A DNA stretch of 38,087 nt from a virus (lineage: Duplodnaviria > Heunggongvirae > Uroviricota > Caudoviricetes), in the IMG/VR virus record IMGVR_UViG_2711768019_000014, one strand, 5' to 3'. The notes under the pieces are model-generated. The model was not told the origin of the DNA. It searched no databases and saw only the letters and a list, made by a program, of their open reading frames with translations. The translations under genes and the position numbers were made by a program. This document shows, piece after piece, positions 1,032 through 36,659 of the stretch. The stretch's first letter is position 1. Each line of letters begins with the position of its first letter.

Positions 1032-4000
1032 TCAACGAATACTGATGCCGGAAGCGGCTTTTTTGGTCACAATCACCGTACAGTCGGTGATATTGCCTGC
1101 CCCCTGATTGCCTTTCTGGAAAATCTTAAACTCCAGAGTGACGCTTCCCCTGCCACTCGGCATATCAATAACTGCACTGTAACTACCGGGAATGGCCCCT
1201 TTAGTTTCTCTGGATGCGATTAATACGCCGTTTTTGCGAACTTCAAAACCATAACCCGTGTATCGCGTGCCTCCTGGGTTATTTCCGCTCCCCGGATCGT
1301 CATACGCTATACCGTTAAAAATAATGGGCGGAATAATAATCTGGCGGTCAAAGTTATGATCATCGCTGATGGTGACTGTAACCGTACCGTCTGGTGTTTC
1401 CGTGTTACCCCACGTACCGACTTTTTTCGGGAAGGCTTTTGATACAGCTTTAACGAAATCTCCTCTGACCTGGGTCGCCTCCAGCATGCCCTTAATCGTA
1501 CAGTTCTGGTTAATCGTGACATTGTTGAGCGTCCCTGAATTTGCATTCACATTACCGCTGATATCCGCATTTTTAGCGGTCAGCTTTCCGTCTGGTGTCA
1601 GGGAAAATGCCGGCGGATTTCCACCGCTGGTAATGGTGGGAGCCGTCAGGCGTTTCAGGAACACGTCATTCATGAATATCTGGTTGCCCTGCGCCACAAA
1701 CATCGGCGTTTCATTCCCGTTTGCCGGGTCAATAAACGCGATACGGTTAGCGGCAACCAGAAACTGGCTCAGTTTGCCTTCCTCCGTGTCCTCCATGCTG
1801 AGGCCAATACCCGCGACATAATGTTTGCCGTCTTTGGTCTGCTCAATTTTGACGCCCCACATGGCATTCCACTTATCGTTGGCGTCCTTCCACTCTTTCG
1901 AAAACTCCTCCAGTCTGCTGGCGTTATCCTCCGTCAGGTCGACTTTTTCCAGCAGCTCCTGGCCGAGATGGGATTCGGTTATCTGGCCTTTGAAAAAATC
2001 CAGGTAACCTTCCGCATCATCGCTCGCCCGACCGACAGCCTCCACGAATGCTGATTTGCCGACGGTGTTCACACTGCGGATATAAAAGTAATAATCATGG
2101 CCCGGCTTAATATTGATACTGGCGGCTATCCAGTACAGCCCCGTGCCAAGGTAGCGGGCTGTGGTTTCAACCTGCCTGATATCCGCAATCCGTTTTTCCG
2201 AGAACCAGAACTCAAACTGTACCGTCGGGTCATAAACCGCAAGATGCGGCGTGGCGGTTATCTGAAAATAGCCCGGCGTCAGCTCAATCCGCGACGGCGC
2301 TGCCGGTGCGGCAATCCGGAACGATACCGACGCCGGATCGCCCTGCTGCCCCCACGCATTTACTGCCCGGACTGTCAGCCTGTAGTTCCCCAGAGCCAGT
2401 TGTGTGAAGCGGTAAGTGGTTTCCGTCGTCCGGGCCGTGCTGACCAGCCGCTCACGGCCGTCATCCGCTGCCACGGTCAGGCGAAGCAGGAAGCTCACGC
2501 CCTTCACCACCTTCGGCGTGTCCCAGCGGGCCAGCACCTGGTATTCCCCGCTGTCTGCGGTGACTTCTGCGGTCAGGTGCTGCACCGCTGGCGGCGTGAC
2601 ACCATTTACCGTGCCGCTCTGGTCGCCGTCAAAGTGCGCCCCGTTATCCACGATGGCCTCTTTTTCCGGTACATGCTGCACGGCAGTGATGGCATACGTG
2701 CCGTCGTCGTTCTCACGGATACTCACGCAGCGGAACAGGCGCTGGCGCAGCGTCGGCAGCTTCAGCCCCCATACGCTGTATTCAGCAACGCCGTCAGGAA
2801 CACGGCTCACTTTCACCTTCACGCCGTCGGTGACGGACTGAACCTCCACGCTGACCGGATTGCCACTTCCGTCAACCAGGCTTATCAGCATGGTACCGGA
2901 GGATGGCAGCGTGATTTCACGGTCGAGCGTCAGCGTCCGGGTCTGGCTGTTTACCGCCAGCACGCGCCCGCCGGTGCGGATACCGGCATAGTCATCATCG
3001 CAGATTTCAATGACATCGCCCGGTACATGGCGAAGCCCTTCGGCACCCACGCTGAAGTCCACGGTCTGCGTTTCCAGCAGTTCTGTTTTAATCAGCCANN
3101 NNNNNNNNNNNNNNNNNNNNNNNNNNNNNNNNNNNNNNNNNNNNNNNCTTCGTGACGTTACGACCGTAACGGGCAATGGCCTGCGTGTCCTCCACAAGCT
3201 CTGTCGCCGTCTCCCAGCCGTTATTCGGGTCAATCCAGTTCACCTCAACGGCATTATGGCGGTCCTTCAGGGCGCTGAAGCTGTAGCGGAACGGCGCACC
3301 ATCATCCGGCATCACCACATTACTGCGGTTATAGGTCCACACCTTATCCGACGGTCGGTCCTGCACGAACGTCAGCGTCTGCCCGTTCCATACCGGCATA
3401 CAGCGCATCGCCGAGCAGAAATCACTGAGCACATCCCACGCCTTGCGCTGTGTGGTCAGGTACGCATTACAGGTGATGCGCNNNNNNNNNNNNNNNNNNN
3501 NNNNNNNNNNNNNNNNNNNNNNNNNNNNNNNNNNNNNNNNNNNNNNNNNNNNNNNNNNNNNNNNNNNNNNNNNNNNNNNNNNNNNNNNNNNNNNNNNNNN
3601 NNNNNNNNNNNNNNNNNNNNNNNNNNNNNNNNNNNNNNNNNNNNNNNNNNNNNNNNNNNNNNNNNNNNNNNNNNNNNNNNNNNNNNNNNNNNNNNNNNNN
3701 NNNNNNNNACGGCACCTGCAGAATGCGCCCGCGCAGATGATAATTACGGCTCACCTGCTGGCTGCCGAACTGCTCCGAATCCACCTGCACGCCGACCAGT
3801 GCCGTGTTCGGGTAGCACTGTTTCACATCGATGATTTCGGTGTATGACGACCAGAGCGTTTTGTTCTGCAGCTGGTCTGTGGTGCTGTCCGGCGTCATCC
3901 TGCGCATCCGTATATTGAACGGGCGCGGCGGCAGGTTACCCACCACCACCGAGGCCAGATACTGCGAGGTGGTTTTGCCCTTAATGGTGATGTCTTTTTC

Positions 4001-4447: not shown

Positions 4448-4507
4448 TCCTCACGCTCCATAAACGACAAAACCGCCCGGAGGCGGTTTCACATAAAACA
4501 TTTTGCA

Positions 4508-5155
4508 TCAGCGACCAATCACCACAACCTGACCACCATCCCCTTCGTCTGCCGTGCTGATCTCCTGAGAAACCACACGTGACCCCACGCGCATTTCACC
4601 GTACAGAACAGGCAGAACATTGCCCTGGGCAACCATGTTATCCAGTGAGGAGAAATAGGTGTTCTGTTTGCCGTTATCTGTACTGGCTGCCGTGGGCGTC
4701 CTGGCTTTCGGTGCCAGCATCTGCGCCACTCCGCCCAGGATCATACTGGCCCCTGCCGCATACATGCCCGATACAGCCGCGGCCCCCAGCCAGCCCACAG
4801 GGTTCCACCATGCCACCGCAATCAGCGCCGCCCCAAGCACCACCTGAAACACACCGCCACTTTTAGCTCCCGCCAGACGCGGCACGATGTGGATCACGGC
4901 ACCATTTGCCAGCGGCTCATTAAGACGGGCAGATAATTCATTTTCGCCTGCATCACGCCCGGCAATGCGCACCTGATACCAGCCCTCATTCAGTTTCTGA
5001 CGAAACGCCGGGATCTGCATGGCCAGCGCCCGGATGGCTTCGGACCCCGTTTTCACTCGAAGGTCGATGCGGCGGCCAAATCGTTGTAAATCCCCGTAAA
5101 GGCAGATGCGTGCCATGCCCGGTGACGCCAGAGGGAGTGTGTGCGTCGCTGCCAT
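4508..5155 (-). CDS. I: Tail assembly protein I
   Basis: 215 aa; sits between K and J and overlaps K by about 100 nt, as lambda I does; ubiquitin-like N-terminal region followed by a hydrophobic segment. Confidence 0.8.
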   Translation of the reverse strand: MAATHTLPLASPGMARICLYGDLQRFGRRIDLRVKTGSEAIRALAMQIPAFRQKLNEGWYQVRIAGRDAGENELSARLNEPLANGAVIHIVPRLAGAKSGGVFQVVLGAALIAVAWWNPVGWLGAAAVSGMYAAGASMILGGVAQMLAPKARTPTAASTDNGKQNTYFSSLDNMVAQGNVLPVLYGEMRVGSRVVSQEISTADEGDGGQVVVIGR

Positions 5156-5822
5156 TTGTCGGTATACCTCTCTCGTTTGCTCAGTTGTTCAGGAATATGG
5201 TGCAGCAGCTCGCCGTCACCACAGTAAATGGCGGCATGATTCGGCACCGATGAACCAAAACAGCACAGCAGCACATCGCCCGGCTGCGCCGCTGACAACG
5301 GCACCTGATACAGCCCTGTANNNNNNNNNNNNNNNNNNNNNNNNNNNNNNNNNNNNNNNNNNNNNNNNNNNNNNNNNNNNNNNNNNNNNNNNNNNNNNNN
5401 NNNNNNNNNNNNNNNNNNNNNNNNNNNNNNNNNNNNNNNNNNNNNNNNNNNNNNNNNNNNNNNNNNNNNNNNNNNNNNNNNNNNNNNNNNNNNNNNNNNN
5501 NNNNNNNNNNNNNNNNNNNNNNNNNNNNNNNNNNNNNNNNNNNNNNNNNNNNNNNNNNNNNNNNNNNNNNNNNNNNNNNNNNNNNNNNNNNNNNNNNNNN
5601 NNNNNNNNNNNNNNNNNNNNNNNNNNNNNNNNNNNNNNNNNNNNNNNNNNNNNNNNNNNNNNNNNNNNNNNNNNNNNNNNNNNNNNNNNNNNNNNNNNNN
5701 NNNNNNNNNNNNNNNNNNNNNNNNNNNNNNNNNNNNNNNNNNNNNNNNNNNNNNNNNNNNNNNNNNNNNNNNNNNGCACATCGCCGGGCGTGCGCCAGAA
5801 TCGCTGATTCTGTCTGTGTCAT
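5053..5822 (-). CDS. K: Tail assembly protein K (NlpC/P60-type cysteine peptidase domain); interrupted by an N-masked block
   Basis: N-terminus MTQTESAILAHARRC before the mask; C-terminal part carries a Cys/His motif (VLLCCFGSSVPNHAAIYCGDGELLHH); position between L and I. Confidence 0.8.
5321..5775. other. N-masked block (455 nt) inside K
   Basis: Run of n. Confidence 1.
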
Positions 5823-5827
5823 GGGAT

Positions 5828-6573
5828 TTACTGCGAAAGTTTGTTAATGGAAAGGAAGCCGCCAAAGTTGCCGACGTTATTGCGAAACTTACAGCCGCTC
5901 AGGCATTTGCTGCATTTATCCTTCGTGATATCGGACGTCGGCTGATCATATTCATCCGCGACCGCCGGACCGTGATAACCGCACTCATCGCCGCGATAGG
6001 TCCAGGTGCAGGTGTTGGCCAGCATGATACGTCCCGGAAAAACGGCACCGTCCGTTTCCGTCNNNNNNNNNNNNNNNNNNNNNNNNNNNNNNNNNNNNNN
6101 NNNNNNNNNNNNNNNNNNNNNNNNNNNNNNNNNNNNNNNNNNNNNNNNNNNNNNNNNNNNNNNNNNNNNNNNNNNNNNNNNNNNNNNNNNNNNNNNNNNN
6201 NNNNNNNNNNNNNNNNNNNNNNNNNNNNNNNNNNNNNNNNNNNNNNNNNNNNNNNNNNNNNNNNNNNNNNNNNNNNNNNNNNNNNNNNNNNNNNNNNNNN
6301 NNNNNNNNNNNNNNNNNNNNNNNNNNNNNNNNNNNNNNNNNNNNNNNNNNNNNNNNNNNNNNNNNNNNNNNNNNNNNNNNNNNNNNNNNNNNNNNNNNNN
6401 NNNNNNNNCTGTCGCCCCTGCCAGGTGACCGGCTCACCTTTTTCGTTCTGCTCATTACAGAAAAAATAACGTTCTCCACCGACCTCTGTCAGATCGATTT
6501 CCCAGAGCACCACCTGGGCTGACTGAGTGAGGCGTGTCGTCTCATGATGTGTTTCCTGTGGAATATCCTGCAT
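5828..6573 (-). CDS. L: Minor tail protein L; interrupted by an N-masked block
   Basis: N-terminal segment MQDIPQETHHETT... and a Cys-rich C-terminal segment (CTWTYRGDECGYHGPAVADEYDQPTSDITKDKCSKCLSGC) lie in different frames either side of the mask; position between M and K. Confidence 0.8.
6063..6408. other. N-masked block (346 nt) inside L
   Basis: Run of n. Confidence 1.
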
Positions 6574-6912: not shown

Positions 6913-9900
6913 TACCGATATGCTCCACTTAACCGACCACCATCACGGGCCTGCTGTTGCATAAAGTCCGCTGCCGCTTTTTTCCCAAGGTCATAAACCA
7001 CCTTCAGGGCAGCCGGACCTATCTGCCCGTTCGTGCCATCGTTATTGATCTCGATGTTGTACTGCGGGGCAAACATCGCCATACCTGAACCACCAATATC
7101 CGCCACAACCCCCAGCTTACCGTCAGCACCACGACGCAGTGGCAGAATGGCTTCAGGTCCCGCTTCCCCCATCACACCCGCGCCTTTTGCAAAAGCAAAA
7201 AACGTCGGACGGTTAACCACCGTGCCACTGTAACGACTCAAATCAGCAGACTGATAAATCCCCCCATTGGCATTCAGGGAAAGGCTGCTGAGATCAAATC
7301 CCAGTACACTGCCAATCCCTTTTATCGATTTCATCATGGTTGCCTGCGCCAGGATTTTCGCCATATCTGACAGCACAGAAGAGGTGAAGGATTTGAAATT
7401 GAGTTTGCCGGTAGTGACAAAAGTTGCCAGGCCATTTCCCATGTTGCTGAAGGCTGACGAGAACACCTGTTCTGCTGTTCCTGCCGTATTATCTGCATCC
7501 ACGGTAAAATCCTGAAATGCACGCAGGACTCCGTTTTTCCAGTTACCCTGCACAACTTCAAGCTGTTGCCAGTAACGGCGATTCTCATTCAGTTGTCGGT
7601 TCAGGCTCTCCGTCAGCGCCTGCTCGGCCTTTCTGTAGTCATCCGTGTTATATGTTCCTTTCTGCTCACTATCCCGCCTCAACTGCTCCAGCTGTTGCTG
7701 GTATTTCTGGCGAAGACTCAGTTGTACCTGATATCGCTGCCGCTGCTGATCACCCATACCCACCGTGGCGATATCCAGGTCATGTTGCTGACGCTGAGCG
7801 CGCTCTTCTTCAGCCAGTTGACTGGTCAGCTGAATTGTTTTTTTCTTCAGCTCGTTGAGTGCCGTCTGTTTCTGAAGCTCCTGCTGTTTTACATCCAGCA
7901 GCGTCAGTGCCTGAATCAGTTCATCTTTACGGGCCAGCACACTCTTTTCATCTGCCGTCAGTTTTTTCCCGTCCAGGTCGCTGATGCGCTGCTGCAGAGC
8001 CAGAAGCTGTTTATGCGCTTCTGTCATCCTTTCCGTGGCAATGCCTGCTGACTGTCTGGCAGCAGCAATCTGTCCTTCCACCTGTGCCTGTTGCTGACTG
8101 TACTGCAGCAATAACCGGGTGGCCTCATCATTACGGGGTTCGCGTGTTTTTTTCTTACCGGATGCCAGGGCTTTCTCGTAACGTTCATTTTCACGTTGTA
8201 TCGCCGCATCCCTGACAGCCTGATCGGCGTACTGCATGGAATTAATACGCGCAATTTCACGCTGATGTCGTGCTGCTTCCGTTTCATTCATCCGGTTCAG
8301 TGCAGCATTTTCAGCATTACGGCGTTTCTGTTGCTCCTGATAATTCCGCTCTGCCTGCTCTTTTGCATCCTGCAAATCCTTCTGGCGTTTTTTCTCCTGA
8401 AGCTCGTTAAGACGCTGCTGATCGTACTCAACCTGAGAAGATGATGCCGTCCAGGGGAGTCTTTTCGCCCGCGACACTTTCTCCTGTAAAGCGGAAATCT
8501 GTTCATCCAGCGAGTCTTCACGACCAATATTCATGGCCGCATCCCAGAAACGACTCCATAAATCAGACAGATACTTCAGCGTACTGCCCAGCGCATTGAG
8601 GTTATTATCAATATCCGCAGTACGCCGACCGGTTTCCTCTGCCAGTGCAGACATGGCTATCCGTGCCGCATCACTGGACCGCCCCTGTTCCCCAAGGACG
8701 CGTATCTGCTCAAGCTGAGTGGCAGTAAGAAAATGCAGCTCATTGTCCAGAGCCTTCGCGGCATTTACAGGATCATCCTTCAGCCGCTTAAACTGATTTA
8801 TGGTATCGCTGACCGACTGGCCAACCGATCGCTCCATCTGTGCGGCAGCTCTCGCCACCATACCGATATCGTTTCCACGAAATGCACCACTCCCCACCAC
8901 CTGAGCCAGCGCACCGGCTGCAGCATGTTGCGTAATACCATTCCCGGAAATAGCACGACTGAGCGTCCACAGCTGCCCGGCAGTGACTCCGGCATAATGC
9001 CCCGTCAGCGACAACTGGCGGTTAAATTCTTCCCCCTCCTTCTGACCGTCATACCAGGCTTTACCCAGACCATAGACAGCCGCGGCAATACCGCCAATAA
9101 CCCCGCCCAGCATCATGCCTTTCGGTGACATCAGTGTGTCTATCCATCCGGCACGGTTAGCCAGCGTTATTCCGGACCCCCTCAGCGCCCCTAAATTGCC
9201 GCGGGCCAGTTCACCTATCAGAACGCCTATCTCCTGGCGGGCTGCTGCACTTTTCAGACCCAGCGAATGCGTGGCTTTTCCTGCCTGCTCCATTTTGCGG
9301 ATATACACTTCTGCAGCACTGCTTACCCCCAGCTGGGCAGCCTTAGCACGAAGCAACTCAGAAGATGAAAGATTCTGGCGGGTTGCCTGCTCTTTAAGCT
9401 GACGGATAAACGCCACTTTCTGTCGGGTAGCCTCTTCCTCAGCCTGTGTAAGAACACGGGTTTTCGCCGTAACCTCAGAAATCAGCGCCAGATAATCCTG
9501 CTGACCAATCCCGCCACTGTTTCTGGCCTGTCGGATCTGCTGCTGAATACGCTGTAATTCCTGCAGCCCCGCACTGGCCTGTTTCACACTGTCAATCTGA
9601 CGATAAAACGCAGCAGCCGCTTTATCCTGAGCCTCCGCCAGAGCCATGGCCTGCGCCTGTTCCTCGCGCATTTTCTGGCTCAGTGCCTCCATGCGCTGGC
9701 GGGTTTTCTCCACCTCGCGGGACATGCGTTCATGAGCCTGTGCGTTCTTCTCCACCGTCTGCGCATGGACGGATGCGGCTGTTGCAGCCGAAGAAGCCGC
9801 CTGCGTTGTCTGCCGGGCGGCCTGAGTCTGACGCTCCATAAAACGCTGCATACGGGCAGAAGACCGTTCTGCATCGCTGGCTGCACCATTCAGAAGGTTT

Positions 9901-20254: not shown

Positions 20255-20722
20255 TCATCGAAGGCATTGCGTCCTGATATATTCCTGAAGCGTTCTCAGT
20301 GCTGTCTGGTCTCTGATGATTCCGTCCCGGATACCGAGAACGTTTCGTCCAGCAACTGGAGAGAGTTCGACGGTGGCATCATTGCCCATGCCGGAGGCGC
20401 TGGAGGTTTCGGCTGAGGATGGCACAGGGCATTTTCCTTTGACGAGCACCCGACCACCATTATCAAGCTTGCGCCGAAGAGCATCATTTTCAGCTTTCGC
20501 ATCAGCCAACTCCTTCGTGTATTTAGCATCGAGTACATCAGCAGCACGCTGGCGTTGCTGCATGTCAGTAATGGTGGCGGTCGCCTGCTTCAGCTCACTG
20601 ACTTTTTTATCACGCTGTTCTTTGTAGGCGATGGCGTTATCACGGTAATGATTGACCGCCCACGACAGGCAGACGATGATGCAGATAACCAGAGCATAAA
20701 TAATCGCGGCGACTCTGCTCAC
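20255..20722 (-). CDS. Rz: Rz i-spanin
   Basis: N-terminal transmembrane segment ([19 protein letters not shown]), coiled-coil middle; likely GTG start overlapping the lysozyme stop. Confidence 0.8.
20296..20502 (-). CDS. Rz1: Rz1 o-spanin lipoprotein, embedded out of frame inside Rz
   Basis: [21 protein letters not shown] lipobox followed by a Pro-rich region ([11 protein letters not shown]); entirely within Rz. Confidence 0.75.
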
Positions 20723-21252
20723 TGATCTATCCCCCAACAGGCTAATGCGCTTTCCTGGTCACGACGAATAACCTGTCCATAGCAGTTATTTGAACGTATG
20801 CGGCAATCGCGCCCACCATCTTTTATCCACCAGCGAATCGCCTCGCATGCACCTTTACGATCACCAGCATTCAGCCGCTTATAAAACGTCGACGGAAAAC
20901 ACTTACCGGGGCCAATGTTATAGGGACAAAATGACGCGATACCCGCTTTTTGTGGCTCGGTCAGTGGTACTTTAATATTGCGCTCCACCCATGCCAGCGC
21001 CTTATCACGCTCAATGGCGTTGACCTGGTCGCATTTTTCCTTCGACAGTTTCATACCGGGAAAAACGGGTTTTCCATCCACCATCGTGGCACCCCGACAG
21101 ATGGTCCAGATGCCGGACCCATCGCGGTATGCCGTTGTGTGGTTACCTTCTTTTTCATCCAGAAACTGGTCGAGAATATCAGGCGCGGGCGCACCGACGG
21201 CAATCAGTGCCAGAACGGCAGCCGACAGGCCGTATCTGATTTTTGCGTTCAT
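20719..21252 (-). CDS. Endolysin, T4-type lysozyme with an N-terminal SAR-like hydrophobic segment
   Basis: N-terminal [18 protein letters not shown]; catalytic-triad-like spacing E..D..T in [24 protein letters not shown]; lies between holin and Rz. Confidence 0.85.
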
Positions 21253-21385: not shown

Positions 21386-21776
21386 NNNNNNNNNNNNNNN
21401 NNNNNNNNNNNNNNNNNNNNNNNNNNNNNNNNNNNNNNNNNNNNNNNNNNNNNNNNNNNNNNNNNNNNNNNNNNNNNNNNNNNNNNNNNNNNNNNNNNNN
21501 NNNNNNNNNNNNNNNNNNNNNNNNNNNNNNNNNNNNNNNNNNNNNNNNNNNNNNNNNNNNNNNNNNNNNNNNNNNNNNNNNNNNNNNNNNNNNNNNNNNN
21601 NNNNNNNNNNNNNNNNNNNNNNNNNNNNNNNNNNNNNNNNNNNNNNNNNNNNNNNNNNNNNNNNNNNNNNNNNNNNNNNNNNNNNNNNNNNNNNNNNNNN
21701 NNNNNNNNNNNNNNNNNNNNNNNNNNNNNNNNNNNNNNNNNNNNNNNNNNNNNNNNNNNNNNNNNNNNNNNNNNNN
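21386..21776. other. N-masked block (391 nt) covering most of the holin and the holin-lysozyme junction
   Basis: Run of n. Confidence 1.
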
Positions 21777-21848: not shown

Positions 21849-21915
21849 AACCCCACCTCGCAGATGCGGGTGCTGTGTAATGGAAATAAAAAGGCCACCT
21901 GACGTGGCCACCAGA

Positions 21916-22968
21916 TTATTTCCCCACCAGCTCGTTTATCTCTTTCACTGTCTGATTAAACCGCTCTGACTCAAGCTCAACACCTAAGGCCCGACGCCCC
22001 AGCGCCATTGCTGCTTTTATTGTGGAACCGGATCCCATAAAAAAATCAGCAACCAGATCACCTGGTCGACTACTGGCATTGATTATTTGCCTGAGCATAT
22101 CCGCCGGTTTCTCACACGGATGTTTCCCCGGGTAGAACTGAACGGGTTTATGCATCCAGACATCGGTATAAGGCACGGAGACTGATACGGAGAAATAGCG
22201 CCGGAGAGATTTAAACTCATCCAGCAATTCAGAATATTTACGATTCAGTGAATCATAAGATGCCACCAGCTGGTGGTGTGGTTGTTCCAGTTGTTGTTCC
22301 TGAAACTTCTCTGCCGCTATACGGGAAAACAGTGCCTGTAACTTCCGATAGTCAGCCTCATTCGGCAACTGCCACTGACTGGCACCAAACCAGTGGGAAA
22401 CCATATTTTTCTTACCTGTGGCTTCGGCAATTTGTTTTGCCGTTATACCCAGTTCGGCACGAGCATCCCTGAAATACGATATCAGCGGTGCCATTATGTG
22501 CTGTTTGAGTTCCCTTTCTTTTGCCGCATAGCCGTCACTTTTGCCGCGATATGGCCCCTGGTAATGTTCAGCAAACAGAACGCGCTCTGTGGCAGGAAAA
22601 TATGCGCGCAGACTTTCTTTATTACACCCATTCCAACGTCCGGACGGCTTCGCCCAGATGATATGGTTAAGCACGTTGAAACGTTCACGCATCATGATCT
22701 CAATATCAGATGCCAGGCGATGCCCACAGAACAGGTAAAGGCTTCCGGCAGGTTTCAACACCCGCCAGAACTGGGCCAGACAGTGGTCCAGCCACTTAAG
22801 GTAATCTTCGTCCCCTTTCCACTGATTGTCCCAACCGTTGGGTTTCACCTTGAAGTAAGGCGGATCGGTAACAATCAGGTCAATGGAATCATCAGGCAGG
22901 GACTGAATAAAATGCAGGCAATCAGCGTTGATTAAATCAACACTGTTTATTTTTACAGTATTTTTCAT
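21916..22968 (-). CDS. DNA methyltransferase (N6-adenine/N4-cytosine class, DPPY motif)
   Basis: 350 aa; motif [10 protein letters not shown] near the N-terminus and a C-terminal AdoMet-binding-like FFMGSGST; located in the late operon upstream of the holin. Confidence 0.8.
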
Positions 22969-23118: not shown

Positions 23119-23346
23119 TTACTGGCAGCGTCTGAATTTATTCCCGTACCCGCCGTTATCCTTCGCCAGACCCGCCAGAACTAACTGAGTCAGTATTAAC
23201 TGGCACCGGGCTTCGCTTACTCCGGTAGTTCTCGTCATCATGCGTGGCGTTACCCACTTGTCAGCAGGTAAGAAATGAAGGACTGCGGCGGCGGTTTCTG
23301 TCATATCTTGCTGTTTTAGCATGTCTTTTTCCCTTCTGGTTAACAT
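23119..23346 (-). CDS. Hypothetical small protein (75 aa)
   Basis: ORF only; sits between the lipoprotein moron and the methyltransferase. Confidence 0.4.
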   Translation of the reverse strand: MLTRREKDMLKQQDMTETAAAVLHFLPADKWVTPRMMTRTTGVSEARCQLILTQLVLAGLAKDNGGYGNKFRRCQ

Positions 23347-23444
23347 GACATACCAATAACTCTTGTCTAAAAAGCCAGCAAGATAAAAAGTCAGTATTCA
23401 CGACCACCAGCGTGTTTACTGTACTGCACCAAGTTTACGGGTAC

Positions 23445-23468
23445 AAAAAACCCGCTCAGTGGCGGGTT
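23445..23468 (-). terminator. Rho-independent terminator downstream of the lipoprotein moron
   Basis: Minus strand aacccgcc-actgag-cgggtt followed by T6; near-identical copy of the terminator at 24119-24148. Confidence 0.6.
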
Positions 23469-23545
23469 GCTATCACAGCTATATATTTACTTATTATGCC
23501 GTTACTAACATTTATCTTCGACATATAATCGAAAACAAGGTTTGC

Positions 23546-23971
23546 TTAAAACTCTGCTTTCATTTTATCCGGGAATTTTTTATTTGCAGCATAATAACTA
23601 CCAAGTACATAAGCGTTCATTTGCTGCTCTACATCAACCCGACATGCCGCACTAGAACAAGCTCCACTGATAAGCCCAAAAGAACTCCCTTTAGCAGAGA
23701 GATCAGCTTTGATTTCCTCTACAGTGTTTTTCCCCATAGCAACTACACACCCTGTCACAATATATCTAGCTTTCACATCATCCATGCTAAGGATAGTAGT
23801 TTTCGCAATTTTGCTGTATCCATCATTTTTATAAACATCCATGGCAAACGCACGGCAATCTGTATAATACGGACTTGCTTTAACTTGCGAATACTCAGGT
23901 AATTTCATACCTGCACAACCAACTAAACAAAAACCTATCGCTGCTATTAATACCTTTTTCATTACAGTCAT
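23546..23971 (-). CDS. Lipoprotein of unknown function (AT-rich moron)
   Basis: Signal peptide with lipobox (MKKVLIAAIGFCLVGCAG); marked GC drop relative to flanking phage genes; flanked by two terminators. Confidence 0.7.
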   Translation of the reverse strand: MTVMKKVLIAAIGFCLVGCAGMKLPEYSQVKASPYYTDCRAFAMDVYKNDGYSKIAKTTILSMDDVKARYIVTGCVVAMGKNTVEEIKADLSAKGSSFGLISGACSSAACRVDVEQQMNAYVLGSYYAANKKFPDKMKAEF

Positions 23972-24118
23972 AACCTAGAAGCATCATTGAAACTAATTTA
24001 TTAAATAACCATCGAGTTTCTGGAATACAGACGTTAACCATCTCTCCAAAATCTAAAAGATAATAAGAAAAAATGTTTAACGCACCAATCCATTTCATAG
24101 TTTCATGAGACATCAGGC

Positions 24119-24148
24119 ACAAAAAACCCGCTCAGCGGCGGGTTTTTG
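24119..24148 (-). terminator. tR'-like terminator immediately downstream of the late promoter (bidirectional hairpin)
   Basis: aaaaaacccgc-tcagcg-gcgggttttt, about 40-60 nt downstream of the candidate promoter on the minus strand. Confidence 0.65.
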
Positions 24149-24182: not shown

Positions 24183-24220
24183 TTGAGAAAATCTTATCCA
24201 TATTTTTTGAAAAATGCAAG
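24183..24220 (-). promoter_or_regulatory. Candidate late promoter pR' (with qut region)
   Basis: Minus strand TTGCAT-N17-TAAGAT located between the Q-like gene stop and the terminator. Confidence 0.45.
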
Positions 24221-24250: not shown

Positions 24251-25003
24251 CTATCTTGTCACTTTTCTCAATTGCGATTCAGCATACGCTTCTTCCTGCC
24301 AGCACTTTGTAACCAGTTTATTAATAACGTCTGCATATCCTTTGTACCACTGATAATCCGTCAGGTCCGGTACCAGTTTCTGGACATGATGCCGCGCCAG
24401 TGTGGTTGGTAAACGGCTAAACCGGTTGCCATTGCAACGCCCACAAATCTTATAAACAGGCACACCATGAAGCCGGGTTCTTTTTTCATCCAGGACAATA
24501 CCTTTACCCTTACACCCTCTGCACGCTGTGCTGACTTCTCCCTTACCATGGCAATGCTGACATAGTTCCTTCACCCACTCTTCCTTGATAACAGATTCCC
24601 CGCTTCTGGAGTGTTTCACCACTTCGCGCAATACATTATGAAATCCAGTACCAGCACAATGCTCACAGCGAGCCTTACTTGCCGCAGACCTGGAATAATC
24701 AGCAAAGGCAAAATTCACAAGGTAAGGGATGATCTGTAACCGGGTTTCTTCACTCAATTTGTTCAATGTCGGGTTATCCAGTGCCATCGCGTAATTGAGC
24801 AGACCTTCAATCGCAAATTGAGGATCCTGAACACCAACTTTTGCCAGGAATAAGGCAAACCCAAGCGGTGCTTTCGACTGCACCATCCCCTGCGCAGCCA
24901 TCACATCCGTAATCGTTAAACCACCTGAGCCTGTCGCCGGTGCGTCATCGCTCAATTTTGGAGATTTTGGGGAGTAATATTTTGGTAAGGCTTCAAGGTT
25001 CAT
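24251..25003 (-). CDS. Late-gene antiterminator Q-like protein with four CxxC zinc-binding motifs
   Basis: 250 aa; CEHCAGTG, CQHCHGKG, CRGCKGKG, CGRCNGNR; assigned mainly from its position directly upstream of the promoter-terminator pair; GGAG Shine-Dalgarno. Confidence 0.55.
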   Translation of the reverse strand: MNLEALPKYYSPKSPKLSDDAPATGSGGLTITDVMAAQGMVQSKAPLGFALFLAKVGVQDPQFAIEGLLNYAMALDNPTLNKLSEETRLQIIPYLVNFAFADYSRSAASKARCEHCAGTGFHNVLREVVKHSRSGESVIKEEWVKELCQHCHGKGEVSTACRGCKGKGIVLDEKRTRLHGVPVYKICGRCNGNRFSRLPTTLARHHVQKLVPDLTDYQWYKGYADVINKLVTKCWQEEAYAESQLRKVTR

Positions 25004-25016
25004 GCTCGTTCTCCAC

Positions 25017-26012
25017 TTACGCCAATACGCCAATTGCCAGCGCACGATCGATAAAACGAAATATCAGCTCCAGCTGGGAGCCATACTTCTCTTCAAATGC
25101 CACGGTATCCGCATGCAGCTCGTCGTGATGCTTTCTGCACAAAGGCAACACAAAGAGGTCATGCGCTTTTGTACCCATTCCACCCTGACCGTGGCCTATC
25201 AGGTGGTGGGGATCATCAGCAGGCTTTCCACAACATGCACACGGCTGTGTCTTAACCCAGCGCGTGTACTTTTCATTAACCCAGCGGCGGCGTTTTGGGC
25301 GTAACATAAAAGACTCCGGCGACTCCGGATCCACTTTCAGCGCCAGCACCTTTTTTGCCTTATCCTGGATGATGCTGGTGGCAGGAACCGAAGGCACAAG
25401 GTCACTTTCCCGGGTGACAGACGGCACAACAGGCTTTGGTAATCTCAGTGCCTTACGGGCTGCACTTTCCGGTAAGGCATCCGCCAGGTCATTACGAATC
25501 AGCCACCAGCACAGTTCCGGCATTGTCACAACGTGACTATCATCAAAACCGAGATCCCGACGCACAACAGACAACACCCAGCGGGCACAGTTATCCGTTG
25601 CCATTGATTCCAGCCGTTCCGTGAACTGATCGCGCAGCTGGTTATCGCAGTGCCAGCACAGACGGATTGCGCCCGGAGCGTGTCGCATTGTGGTCATGTT
25701 CTCGCTGTGCCAGTCGGAATGAGGCCACTGGCAGCCTTTTTCACGAAGTAACCAGCTTTCAAGACATTCCACGCCACCAGCACGACGGATCACTGCCTCA
25801 TTGCGGAACACGGCCCGAACGGCAGGATCATCCGCCAGCGGTTGTGATGCCGCCGGAACGGCACCACTGGCGAAAGATGAATAACGTTCCGGCTCAGGCT
25901 CCAGCAGAACACGCCCCTGCATAAACAGGGGCATCAGCTCTGAACCTGGCCTGAACAATACGATCCCCATACGCGGGGCAATTTCAGGGGTCAGTAGTGC
26001 TCTCACGGTCAC
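25017..26012 (-). CDS. DUF968-like prophage protein (YdfU-like) with a C-terminal Cys/His motif
   Basis: 331 aa; C-terminal CACCGKPADDPHHLIGHGQGGMGTKAHDLFVLPLCRKHHDELH; family assignment is from memory. Confidence 0.55.
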   Translation of the reverse strand: MTVRALLTPEIAPRMGIVLFRPGSELMPLFMQGRVLLEPEPERYSSFASGAVPAASQPLADDPAVRAVFRNEAVIRRAGGVECLESWLLREKGCQWPHSDWHSENMTTMRHAPGAIRLCWHCDNQLRDQFTERLESMATDNCARWVLSVVRRDLGFDDSHVVTMPELCWWLIRNDLADALPESAARKALRLPKPVVPSVTRESDLVPSVPATSIIQDKAKKVLALKVDPESPESFMLRPKRRRWVNEKYTRWVKTQPCACCGKPADDPHHLIGHGQGGMGTKAHDLFVLPLCRKHHDELHADTVAFEEKYGSQLELIFRFIDRALAIGVLA

Positions 26013-29747: not shown

Positions 29748-30576
29748 GACGATGCCCTCCGCTGATATTCAGGAGACGGTGAATATGAAAATTAGCCTTA
29801 TCCGCCAGACGAATACGTTCAGCTTGCAAGTTAAGAAGGGTTTCTACCAGAACCTGATGTGCCTGCGGATCCGAAAGAGTTACCTTGCGCAGAGCACGTA
29901 GTGCAGTTGTTACATAACTGAGTTTATGTAAGTCTTCATCATTCAGACGAGTGAGGGCTGGGACAGTAGCCATGATGGCAGCCTCCTTGATCGGTGAAAT
30001 ACTTCCACCACCGGAAACGCCAATTTCGCTGGTGGTGAACTGAACGGGGTTGGCGTAACCGGTGATCAAGGAAACCGGCGCATCTTTCGATGCCCCCGCC
30101 CAGCCCACCATAACTTTGATGTGAGCAAATGCGGACGATAAAAAAGACGCTGGCGCGTCATATATCGCCTTGATCAATTCCAGGACGCCAATCCCGGCAC
30201 CCGCTTTATAAGGTGCCTGAACAGTGTAACGTCCCGGAATGGCAGAATCAATGTGCTGGTGGTCCTTCACACTCAACAAAATCACGCCTGAATTTCCACA
30301 AAGGACTAAAGCACTCATGCGGGTAGTCTTTGCGAAGATAGATAACGCGCTGTGTTTCTGGCTCCCAACGAATAACATGAACATAAAGTCCTCTTCCGTC
30401 ACGAAACCAGCGGTTAAGTTCCTGCACAACTCGCCCCCCACAGTCAGGTAAAGTTCTCTGTGGTTACTTACAGCCAGGTGATTTGGTAATCTGCATTCAT
30501 GCCGTAACAACAGGTGTTCAGCGACGCTGACCACCAGCTGTTGCGACAAACGGTTATTTGCCGTTAAACTGTTCAT
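29740..30576 (-). CDS. Hypothetical early protein (278 aa)
   Basis: Long ORF coupled to its neighbours; no motif recognised. Confidence 0.5.
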   Translation of the reverse strand: MNSLTANNRLSQQLVVSVAEHLLLRHECRLPNHLAVSNHRELYLTVGGELCRNLTAGFVTEEDFMFMLFVGSQKHSALSIFAKTTRMSALVLCGNSGVILLSVKDHQHIDSAIPGRYTVQAPYKAGAGIGVLELIKAIYDAPASFLSSAFAHIKVMVGWAGASKDAPVSLITGYANPVQFTTSEIGVSGGGSISPIKEAAIMATVPALTRLNDEDLHKLSYVTTALRALRKVTLSDPQAHQVLVETLLNLQAERIRLADKANFHIHRLLNISGGHRHA

Positions 30577-32200: not shown

Positions 32201-32682
32201 TATCTAAAAGAAACACAGCACAGGCAAGATTAAACAAAATTTGGTTGTAACACGGCGTATGGCACATGCGTCGTTAGCGGTCTGGGGACGTTAAAGGGGA
32301 CAATCCACTCCTTGCTCGGGCAAACAAACCAGGTAGCCGGAATGTGCAAGTCAATGATGATGCTGATAAGACGCCTAACCAGCGTGGCGATTCGGTTTGA
32401 CGCCTGGGAAGAGACCAGGGTGCAACGATGAGGACATTTATGGAACCGCGACAAAGTGTGGTGCCGTAACTGGCTAAGTGCTCTCAGCGTTGTGGTGAAT
32501 GCGCAGGCTGATGCGCGAAAGACATTGCAGCTAATGCGGAAAAGAGCTGTTCGGCGGGGCAATTAAACGCCCGTGAGAGTCTGAAATAACCGCAAGCCGG
32601 AGATCAGCACCGGTCACCACAACAGCCACTGCTTTGGCGGTACCAGTTTGTACACTTGCTTCCGGCTGGTACCGCTCTTTTT
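32201..32682 (+). ncRNA. Candidate noncoding leader RNA or regulatory leader (no credible ORF), ending at a terminator-like hairpin
   Basis: About 480 nt between the promoter and a GCGGTACCAG-N19-CTGGTACCGC hairpin followed by TCTTTTT; only very short ORFs without Shine-Dalgarno sequences. Confidence 0.3.
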
Positions 32683-36238: not shown

Positions 36239-36659
36239 ATGCCCATACAGAGAATAGATNNNNNNNNNNNNNNNNNNNNNNNNNNNNNNNNNNNNNNNNN
36301 NNNNNNNNNNNNNNNNNNNNNNNNNNNNNNNNNNNNNNNNNNNNNNNNNNNNNNNNNNNNNNNNNNNNNNNNNNNNNNNNNNNNNNNNNNNNNNNNNNNN
36401 NNNNNNNNNNNNNNNNNNNNNNNNNNNNNNNNNNNNNNNNNNNNNNNNNNNNNNNNNNNNNNNNNNNNNNNNNNNNNNNNNNNNNNNNNNNNNNNNNNNN
36501 NNNNNNNNNNNNNNNNNNNNNNNNNNNNNNNNNNNNNNNNNNNNNNNNNNNGCGGTTAGACAGATAGAGCAGCTTCATCAATTTCAGATATGCCATGCGC
36601 CCACCTCGCTTAAGAAGTAGGTATGCAGCCATTTGAGCTACTTTTTCTTCGCAAAACAT
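36225..36659 (-). CDS. Panacea (DUF4065, SocA-like) domain protein, candidate antitoxin; the middle is N-masked
   Basis: N-terminus MFCEEKVAQMAAYLLLKRGGRMAYLKLMKLLYLSNR matches the Panacea signature (...LKLQKLLY...) as I recall it; GAGG Shine-Dalgarno 8 nt upstream. Confidence 0.6.
   Translation of the reverse strand: MFCEEKVAQMAAYLLLKRGGRMAYLKLMKLLYLSNRXXXXXXXXXXXXXXXXXXXXXXXXXXXXXXXXXXXXXXXXXXXXXXXXXXXXXXXXXXXXXXXXXXXXXXXXXXXXXXXXXXXXXXXXXXXXXXXXXXLFSVWAYEPI
36260..36551. other. N-masked block (292 nt) inside the Panacea-like gene
   Basis: Run of n. Confidence 1.

Follow-up and report, generated by a model that had tools for sequence, protein, structure and literature searches.

Lambdoid prophages carry toxins and other host-altering cargo at the locus between the late antiterminator gene Q and the lysis genes. 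In a 38,087-nt stretch of tailed-phage DNA (IMG/VR record IMGVR_UViG_2711768019_000014), a lambda-like E. coli prophage referred to here as the window, this locus holds a small lipoprotein gene with a nearly identical terminator hairpin on either side, which raises the question of how one gene came to lie between two copies of one terminator and what such an arrangement would do. A first-pass annotation, made from the letters of the window only, had described the gene as a moron whose insertion duplicated the late terminator. Morons are independent transcription units spread by horizontal transfer (PMC3594210). The reading preferred here, to which a probability of roughly 0.6 is given, is that a moron cassette of ~650 bp sits directly after the tR' terminator of a Q-pR' module of the lambda/82 type and is enclosed by two copies of a hairpin that is shared among a group of lambdoid phages. 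The features on which the argument draws are the following.

25017-26012, minus strand: DUF968 gene, first in late-gene order, before Q.
24251-25003, minus strand: Q late antiterminator, 250 aa from MNLEAL... (Pfam PF03589 Antiterm, E=6.9e-54; phrog_127); the longest ORF reaches 25045.
24191-24219, minus strand: candidate pR', TTGCAT (24219-24214), 17-nt spacer, TAAGAT (24196-24191), with +1 inferred near 24184.
24116-24147, minus strand: hairpin copy 2, the predicted tR', AACCCGC-CGCTGA-GCGGGTT plus U6 (U-tract 24126-24121).
24060-24088, minus strand: candidate sigma-70 promoter of the cargo gene (a prediction), TTGGTG, 17-nt spacer, TATTAT.
23895-24122, minus strand: 75-aa ORF with a TTG start, probably no gene (phrog_37626).
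23546-23971, minus strand: lipoprotein gene, 141 aa, with an alternative start at 23962 (phrog_4748, full length, E=7.5e-91).
23440-23468, minus strand: hairpin copy 1, downstream of the lipoprotein gene, AACCCGC-CACTGA-GCGGGTT plus U6.
23469-24144: 676-bp unit comprising the cassette and one copy of the repeat; some related prophages have it and others lack it.
23119-23346, minus strand: orf47-like small protein, 75 aa, first gene of the downstream methyltransferase module (phrog_331).
21916-22968, minus strand: N6/N4 DNA methyltransferase (PF01555, E=2.2e-42; PADLOC MTase_II, E=3.3e-152).
21883-21909, minus strand: third, unrelated terminator-like hairpin in the gap between methyltransferase and holin, found by pattern scan; Ayreon and SfV have an annotated terminator at the corresponding position.

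The late genes are read from the minus strand in the order DUF968, Q, an intergenic region of ~100 nt, copy 2, an AT-rich segment of 145 bp, and the lipoprotein gene, followed by copy 1, the orf47-like gene, the methyltransferase gene, the third hairpin, and the holin, lysozyme and Rz/Rz1 genes. The first-pass placement of the lipoprotein gene in the Q-to-holin cargo locus, between two terminator copies, is thus borne out, with coordinates that were off by 1-3 nt. The cassette differs from its neighbours in base composition, which is foreign: its GC fraction is 0.357, as against 0.479 for the methyltransferase gene, 0.473 for Q and 0.506 for the whole window. The orf47-like protein is annotated as a TrmB-family regulator in a Stx2k phage, and its gene accompanies the methyltransferase gene behind other Q types as well. 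Six runs of N are masked in the window (3099-3147, 3482-3708, 5321-5775, 6063-6408, 21386-21776, and 36260-36551), one of which (21386-21776) covers the greater part of the holin gene, which closely follows the methyltransferase gene.

Which of the two hairpins is the late terminator can be approached from the Q side. The Q product matches the lambda Q structures 7UBM and 4MO1 (E=2.9e-37), and a pR' candidate can be read off the minus strand as TTGCAT-17 nt-TAAGAT (24219-24191), followed by TTTCTCAACGATGGGCC. Its -10 hexamer and the CTCAACGATGGG element, the early-transcribed pause element of lambda, line up with lambda pR' (Q-S interval, NC_001416). Copy 2 lies beside Q, ~40-63 nt past the inferred +1, that is, at the short distance after pR' at which a tR' is found. 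Because the Q protein is of the lambda type, the -10 and CTCAACGATGGG elements align with those of lambda, and copy 2 follows directly downstream, the Q-proximal copy is most readily identified as tR'; from a start near 24184, the pR' transcript would reach copy 2 after ~40 nt and would therefore yield a predicted RNA of ~63 nt. The earlier suggestion that one of the pair is the late terminator accordingly agrees with both the Q family and the promoter alignment, and the Q-proximal copy is the one concerned.

A search of Rfam at the locus returned no family for the predicted ~63-nt pR' RNA, and only sub-threshold, hairpin-driven matches were obtained. Elsewhere in the window, two adjacent minus-strand matches exceed the Rfam gathering score, a C4 antisense RNA (82.3 bits) and the Hfq-binding RNA isrK (64.2 bits), at 30028-30115 and 30140-30216; this pairing may mark a P1/P7-type antirepressor control region. 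A published small RNA of an mEp460-like prophage, sRNA-17, which is ArcA-modulated and 193 nt long in E. coli K1 RS218 (PMC7719688), was considered as the pR'-tR' RNA and rejected, as its primers and Northern probe match exactly at 32550-32675 on the minus strand; the full 193 nt would run somewhat past these matches. The window prophage therefore carries sRNA-17, far from the cassette.

The two hairpins form a direct repeat of 29 nt, GGTACAAAAAACCCGCTCAGTGGCGGGTT at 23440-23468 and GGCACAAAAAACCCGCTCAGCGGCGGGTT at 24116-24144, with 27/29 identical positions and a start-to-start spacing of 676, as is plain once the two copies are aligned in the way the first-pass annotation had advised. In the minus-strand RNA, each copy has a GC-rich stem of 7 bp (AACCCGC/GCGGGUU), a 6-nt loop and a U6 tract, with predicted folding energies of -13.3 and -16.5 kcal/mol for the two. 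A terminator pattern scan listed copy 1, and copy 2 was absent from its list; we take this to be due to the A-tract, which presumably lengthens the stem of copy 2 into the U-tract. Both hairpins are annotated as terminators in the Ayreon record, and the tR' hairpin is so annotated in SfV also. Copy 1 is a predicted intrinsic terminator downstream of the cargo gene, as is characteristic of a moron.

An A-tract, a CCCGC stem and a U-tract make up a generic design for strong intrinsic terminators, and two independent terminators might on that account have come to resemble each other by chance, or by convergence on an optimal shape. However, the 27/29 identity covers the loop as well as 5 nt past the A-tract, the 24-nt core of the repeat occurs exactly twice in the window against 0.00 occurrences expected (100 shuffles), and the identical loop recurs in many phages. 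Chance or convergence is effectively refuted by these observations. Outside the repeat, the flanks of the two copies align locally no better than shuffled sequences do; a larger, since degraded, original duplication around the hairpins was rejected for this reason.

The cassette is well represented in sequenced phages and bacteria. The 1.5 kb from the end of Q to the start of the methylase gene is 97.9% identical in mEp460 (JQ182728 / NC_019716) and Ayreon (MF807953), the same layout with the same 97.9% identity is present in 15 Stx2c-converting phages (LC727876-LC727890), and E. coli A14 is 100% identical to the window locus. In the mEp460, Ayreon and Stx2c-phage records, the lipoprotein gene is listed as a 'hypothetical protein'. 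Among complete E. coli genomes, 215 of 5426 (~4%) carry the cassette, always in the chromosome, and up to 362 genomes have the empty junction, without the cassette. In one genome (E. coli NZ_OZ501612.1, 4148013-4149435), the cassette is broken by an IS1 element.

Comparison with insert-free relatives, which had been proposed as a check on the insertion, gives a simple result. In E. coli CP8-3_Sichuan and phage SfV, a single hairpin separates Q from orf47 and the methylase gene, and the interval is exactly 676 bp shorter than in the window. Two further empty sites, in the IMG/VR contigs L033 and L046, are near-isogenic to the window. In 700-nt flanks, L033 is 100% identical to it toward Q and 99.3% identical toward orf47, and its single hairpin combines the left flank of copy 1 with the body and right flank of copy 2; L046 is of the reciprocal type, with the body of copy 1 and the right flank of copy 2. 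Judging from these junctions, L033, L046 or both must have arisen by recombination at the hairpin, whether of one copy with the other or of two phages. Each event may have been a gain or a loss, and L033 may represent an ancestral empty site instead of the outcome of a deletion. With CP8-3_Sichuan, SfV and L033 all empty, the cassette is present in some and absent from other close relatives, which is how a moron is expected to be distributed.

A single insertion that placed the lipoprotein gene in or beside tR', duplicating the terminator like a long target-site duplication, is the origin that the first-pass annotation had proposed. The empty sites are in keeping with it, since they keep one hairpin and differ from the window by exactly one repeat period of 676 bp, L033 is both near-isogenic and empty, and the homology of the two copies is limited to 29 nt. 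On the other hand, neither the ORF list nor a repeat search revealed a transposase, an integrase or inverted repeats within the 676 bp, and 29 nt is far above the typical length of a target duplication. Among the ORFs of 30 aa or more in this interval, two have family support, namely the lipoprotein gene and a questionable ORF that overlaps it; the others are short overlapping frames, none of them transposase-like. A transposon-type insertion, with its transposase or terminal inverted repeats and a short duplication, thus does not describe this locus.

The same site can also be filled differently. In E. coli EC21Z-144 (contig L004, 2095-2625, minus strand), a different gene of 176 aa, which has no Pfam or PADLOC match, lies between tR' and orf47, and the terminator of this cargo is distinct (AAAAAACCGCG-AGAA-CGCGGT). 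Duplication of the hairpin is therefore no obligatory by-product of insertion at this site, and the fact that the alternative cargo also brings a terminator supports a functional need over mechanical duplication. Further evidence comes from an ortholog in Salmonella enterica (contig L010; dS ~1.8), where the lipoprotein gene again lies between two hairpins behind a Q of the PF06530 type. The hairpin on the Q side is the same as in the window, whereas the one beyond the gene is related to it but differs in its loop; a methyltransferase remnant and the holin gene come next. That remnant, at ~4480-4810, comprises approximately the C-terminal third of the methyltransferase (residues 241-350, 72% identical) and is the product of a deletion. 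Because an ortholog at dS ~1.8 keeps the same order, with both hairpins, behind a different Q family, the hairpin-gene-hairpin-methylase arrangement is old, and the presence of both hairpins there also tells against duplication by a single insertion.

Duplication by insertion is also opposed by the occurrence of the hairpin elsewhere. Its exact 23-nt core is found in at least 120 viral contigs. Among the matches listed, 129 occurrences have full flanks; these form 43 clusters of left flanks and 41 of right flanks, which combine in 51 ways, several of them re-assortments of the same flanks. At least five distinct Q alleles or types have this hairpin a short way downstream. In at least eight flank combinations, it follows by ~85-190 nt a PF03589-type Q that is 36-100% identical to the window Q, and these combinations represent at least four distinct Q alleles; in PhiR40_1, it lies ~650 nt after a 121-aa PF06530-type Q, with an opposite-strand ORF in between; and in several other combinations, DUF968 is upstream and there is no Q homologous to that of the window. 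As the 23-nt hairpin occurs in many flank contexts and behind several Qs, the two copies in the window are two instances of a shared terminator, and the second copy needs no local duplication. The insertion account thus keeps the 676-bp presence/absence and the single hairpin of the empty sites, and it gives way on the origin of the second copy, given a hairpin shared across more than 40 unrelated flank contexts and at least five Q alleles or types; as an explanation of the repeat it is judged quite improbable. The preferred reading is of a cassette lying between two copies of a common hairpin, where recombination adds and removes it.

The hairpin also marks the points at which modules are joined. 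In a prophage of O157:H7 FRIK944, the match to the window is confined to the part beginning with the copy 1 A-tract and gives way to a tRNA module, whose flank matches the one seen downstream of the hairpin where the preceding Q is 40% identical to that of the window. In PhiR47_1, the cassette is joined to a tRNA array. PhiR40_1 matches the window up to the last base of the hairpin, beyond which another Q type is found; between its PF06530-type Q and the same hairpin/orf47/methylase module lies another lipoprotein-like gene (MNKMTVLLLSATIISGCTSS...; 3194-3640), oriented opposite to late transcription. The homology breakpoints coincide with the edges of the hairpin. In an unrelated locus of the IMG/VR contig L103, two exact 23-nt copies (5672-5694 and 7100-7122) lie 1428 bp apart. 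They enclose one gene of 332 aa and another of 118 aa whose product has a signal peptide and a lipobox-like LTSC motif.

Since the same hairpin of 23-29 nt occupies the tR' position behind several Q alleles, it constitutes a short patch of homology, and recombination at this patch may add or remove the cassette and re-join it to other downstream modules (the methyltransferase, tRNA arrays, or stx); the breakpoints are observed, and the pathway is what they suggest. A broader proposal can be built on this, in which the hairpin AAAAACCCGCTCAGYGGCGGGTT is the common tR' of many lambdoid phages with unrelated Qs and serves as a portable recombination linker, and in which the lipoprotein founds a new family of envelope-acting conversion proteins. 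This proposal is tentative, and its odds are put somewhat below even. If true, recombination over short homologies could insert or remove cargo between two copies and exchange it among phages, and this would be a general route by which the cargo locus from Q to the lysis genes is reshuffled, with the stretch upstream of stx included.

How the cargo gene is expressed is a separate matter. A standard consensus scan found no promoter upstream of the lipoprotein gene, and a relaxed scan found the candidate TTGGTG-17-TATTAT (24088-24060), with 8/12 consensus matches. With a candidate of this quality, the lipoprotein may be made only by Q read-through: the gene would then be the first late gene, transcribed when Q carries polymerase past tR', and the second hairpin would be an extra attenuator that silences the lysis genes. 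The gene is co-oriented with the late operon and starts ~150 nt past tR', and the third terminator before the holin gene would make serial terminators typical of this operon. Expression as a late gene alone is nevertheless judged rather unlikely. The AT-rich upstream segment keeps a promoter-like element, TTGGT(G/A)-N17/18-TAT(T/C)AT, in the diverged Salmonella cassette (where it reads TTGGTA-N18-TATCAT) despite a dS of ~1.8, and the composition of the cassette is foreign to the operon. Rac-like prophages carry orthologs of the lipoprotein gene in their early region, and others are found on plasmids of ~110 kb and in a chromosome; in these non-late contexts, they must have promoters of their own. 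In the contig L133 (Logan ERR14146536), a 70%-identical homolog at 3001-3420 has a non-phage, chromosomal setting, with a lipocalin (Blc-like) gene on one side and a cluster for type II secretion (pilotin/prepilin peptidase) on the other, which hints at a host origin of the family.

Under the preferred reading of a moron cassette placed after tR', expression may be envisaged as follows. In Stx-phage lysogens, pR' is constitutively active and its transcript is stopped at tR' (PMC7547250). By homology to lambda pR' and by analogy with these phages, the constitutive pR' transcript of the window prophage would end at copy 2 as the ~63-nt RNA, and the lipoprotein gene would be transcribed from its own weak sigma-70 promoter, for which the element in the AT-rich 145 bp is the candidate. 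Copy 1 would end this cargo transcript, restoring the block that tR' gave, and there would therefore be no read-through from the cargo promoter into orf47, the methyltransferase gene and the holin/lysis genes. Upon induction, Q-modified polymerase would pass copy 2, copy 1 and the third terminator, and the lipoprotein would be made together with the late products.

The lipoprotein itself begins MTVMKKVLIAAIGFCLVGC-AG..., with a positively charged N-region, a hydrophobic core and a canonical lipobox of the form [LVI][ASTVI][GAS]C (L16-V17-G18-C19), followed by an alanine at +2. Under the +2 rule, alanine at this position leads to outer-membrane sorting, and the protein is probably anchored in the outer membrane. 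Its orthologs are 54-77% identical with the frame kept, the Gly-Cys of the lipobox and four further cysteines are invariant in nine family members, and dN/dS is 0.08-0.18 at a dS of 1.2-1.8 (orthologs versus the window). Because of this low dN/dS and the invariant lipobox and cysteines, the 141-aa ORF is a genuine gene under strong purifying selection. The family is very small: 5.8 billion proteins yielded 11 clusters, and a set of 1.84 billion yielded 8 representatives. Its named members are all from Enterobacteriaceae, labelled 'hypothetical' or, automatically, 'Lipoprotein'. Searches of Pfam, NCBIfam and PADLOC gave no match, a PHROG of unknown function being the only assignment, and a literature search found no paper that names the accessions or the PHROG. 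AlphaFold2 models a helical domain with good confidence (pLDDT 83.6, rising above 90 in most of the mature protein), for which a fold search returned generic helical-bundle matches only. The product would thus be exported, lipidated at Cys19 and sorted to the outer membrane, presenting a helical periplasmic domain of ~120 aa with the four invariant cysteines. A role in lysogenic conversion or exclusion at the level of the envelope appears most likely. Identity as a spanin component was rejected, Rz/Rz1 being encoded elsewhere (20255-20737).

The first-pass annotation had counted a small ORF as further cargo. The frame at 23895-24122 starts inside copy 2 and overlaps the start of the lipoprotein gene by 77 nt, and in the Salmonella ortholog region it is broken by stops. 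Its match to phrog_37626 arises because near-identical phages have already been so annotated. With no conserved ORF in Salmonella, it was rejected as a second cargo gene and is probably spurious.

The window contains no toxin gene, and it had been supposed that the lipoprotein gene and the methyltransferase gene are carried instead of stx. This does not hold: Stx2c phages have the order Q-lipoprotein-orf47-MTase-stx2cA-stx2cB, and a Stx2k phage has Q, the lipoprotein gene, an orf47-like gene, an HTH gene, tRNAs and stx2k. The cassette co-exists with the toxin genes, upstream of them, and is no replacement for stx. As it lies between pR' and stx2c or stx2k, its two terminators and the lipoprotein gene are in the path of the transcript that controls toxin release.

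The locus is a clean natural case, filled, empty and alternatively filled, of how cargo is packaged without unlocking the lysis genes, and it points to a short shared terminator as a site of module exchange. The points of modest interest are this widely shared hairpin as a module junction, and an orphan lipoprotein family that is uncharacterised although abundant, being present in ~4% of complete E. coli genomes and in many Salmonella.

Phage-encoded outer-membrane lipoproteins include Cor (phi80/N15/mEp167), Llp (T5) and Bor (lambda). The cassette lipoprotein is likewise small, made by a prophage and plausibly envelope-acting, and the analogy is functional only. No sequence or fold relation to the Bor, Cor and Llp families or to defence proteins was found; the cassette lipoprotein is predicted to be helical, and its gene is Q-linked rather than tail- or receptor-linked. 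This tie to the Q module argues against a Cor-like, receptor-specific exclusion.

The lambdoid morons (lambda bor/lom, and those of HK97/HK022) offer a closer comparison. Like these, the cassette is missing in close relatives, has an atypical composition and a downstream terminator, and lies between conserved modules. It differs from them in that its promoter is only predicted and in that its downstream terminator is not private, but a second copy of the tR' hairpin of the group.

The Q-pR'-tR'-cargo arrangement of Stx phages, including the short pR' RNA StxS, likewise has its cargo between tR' and the lysis genes, where it is expressed on antitermination by Q (PMC7547250). The window differs in that it lacks a toxin and in that no Rfam family covers its predicted pR' RNA. 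In the Stx2c and Stx2k phages, the cassette itself lies in this interval. Finally, mEp460, Ayreon and the Stx2c phages carry the same cassette with no structural difference from that of the window, and the locus is a known kind of element, already present in sequenced phages, in which the lipoprotein gene is a fairly ordinary add-on gene.
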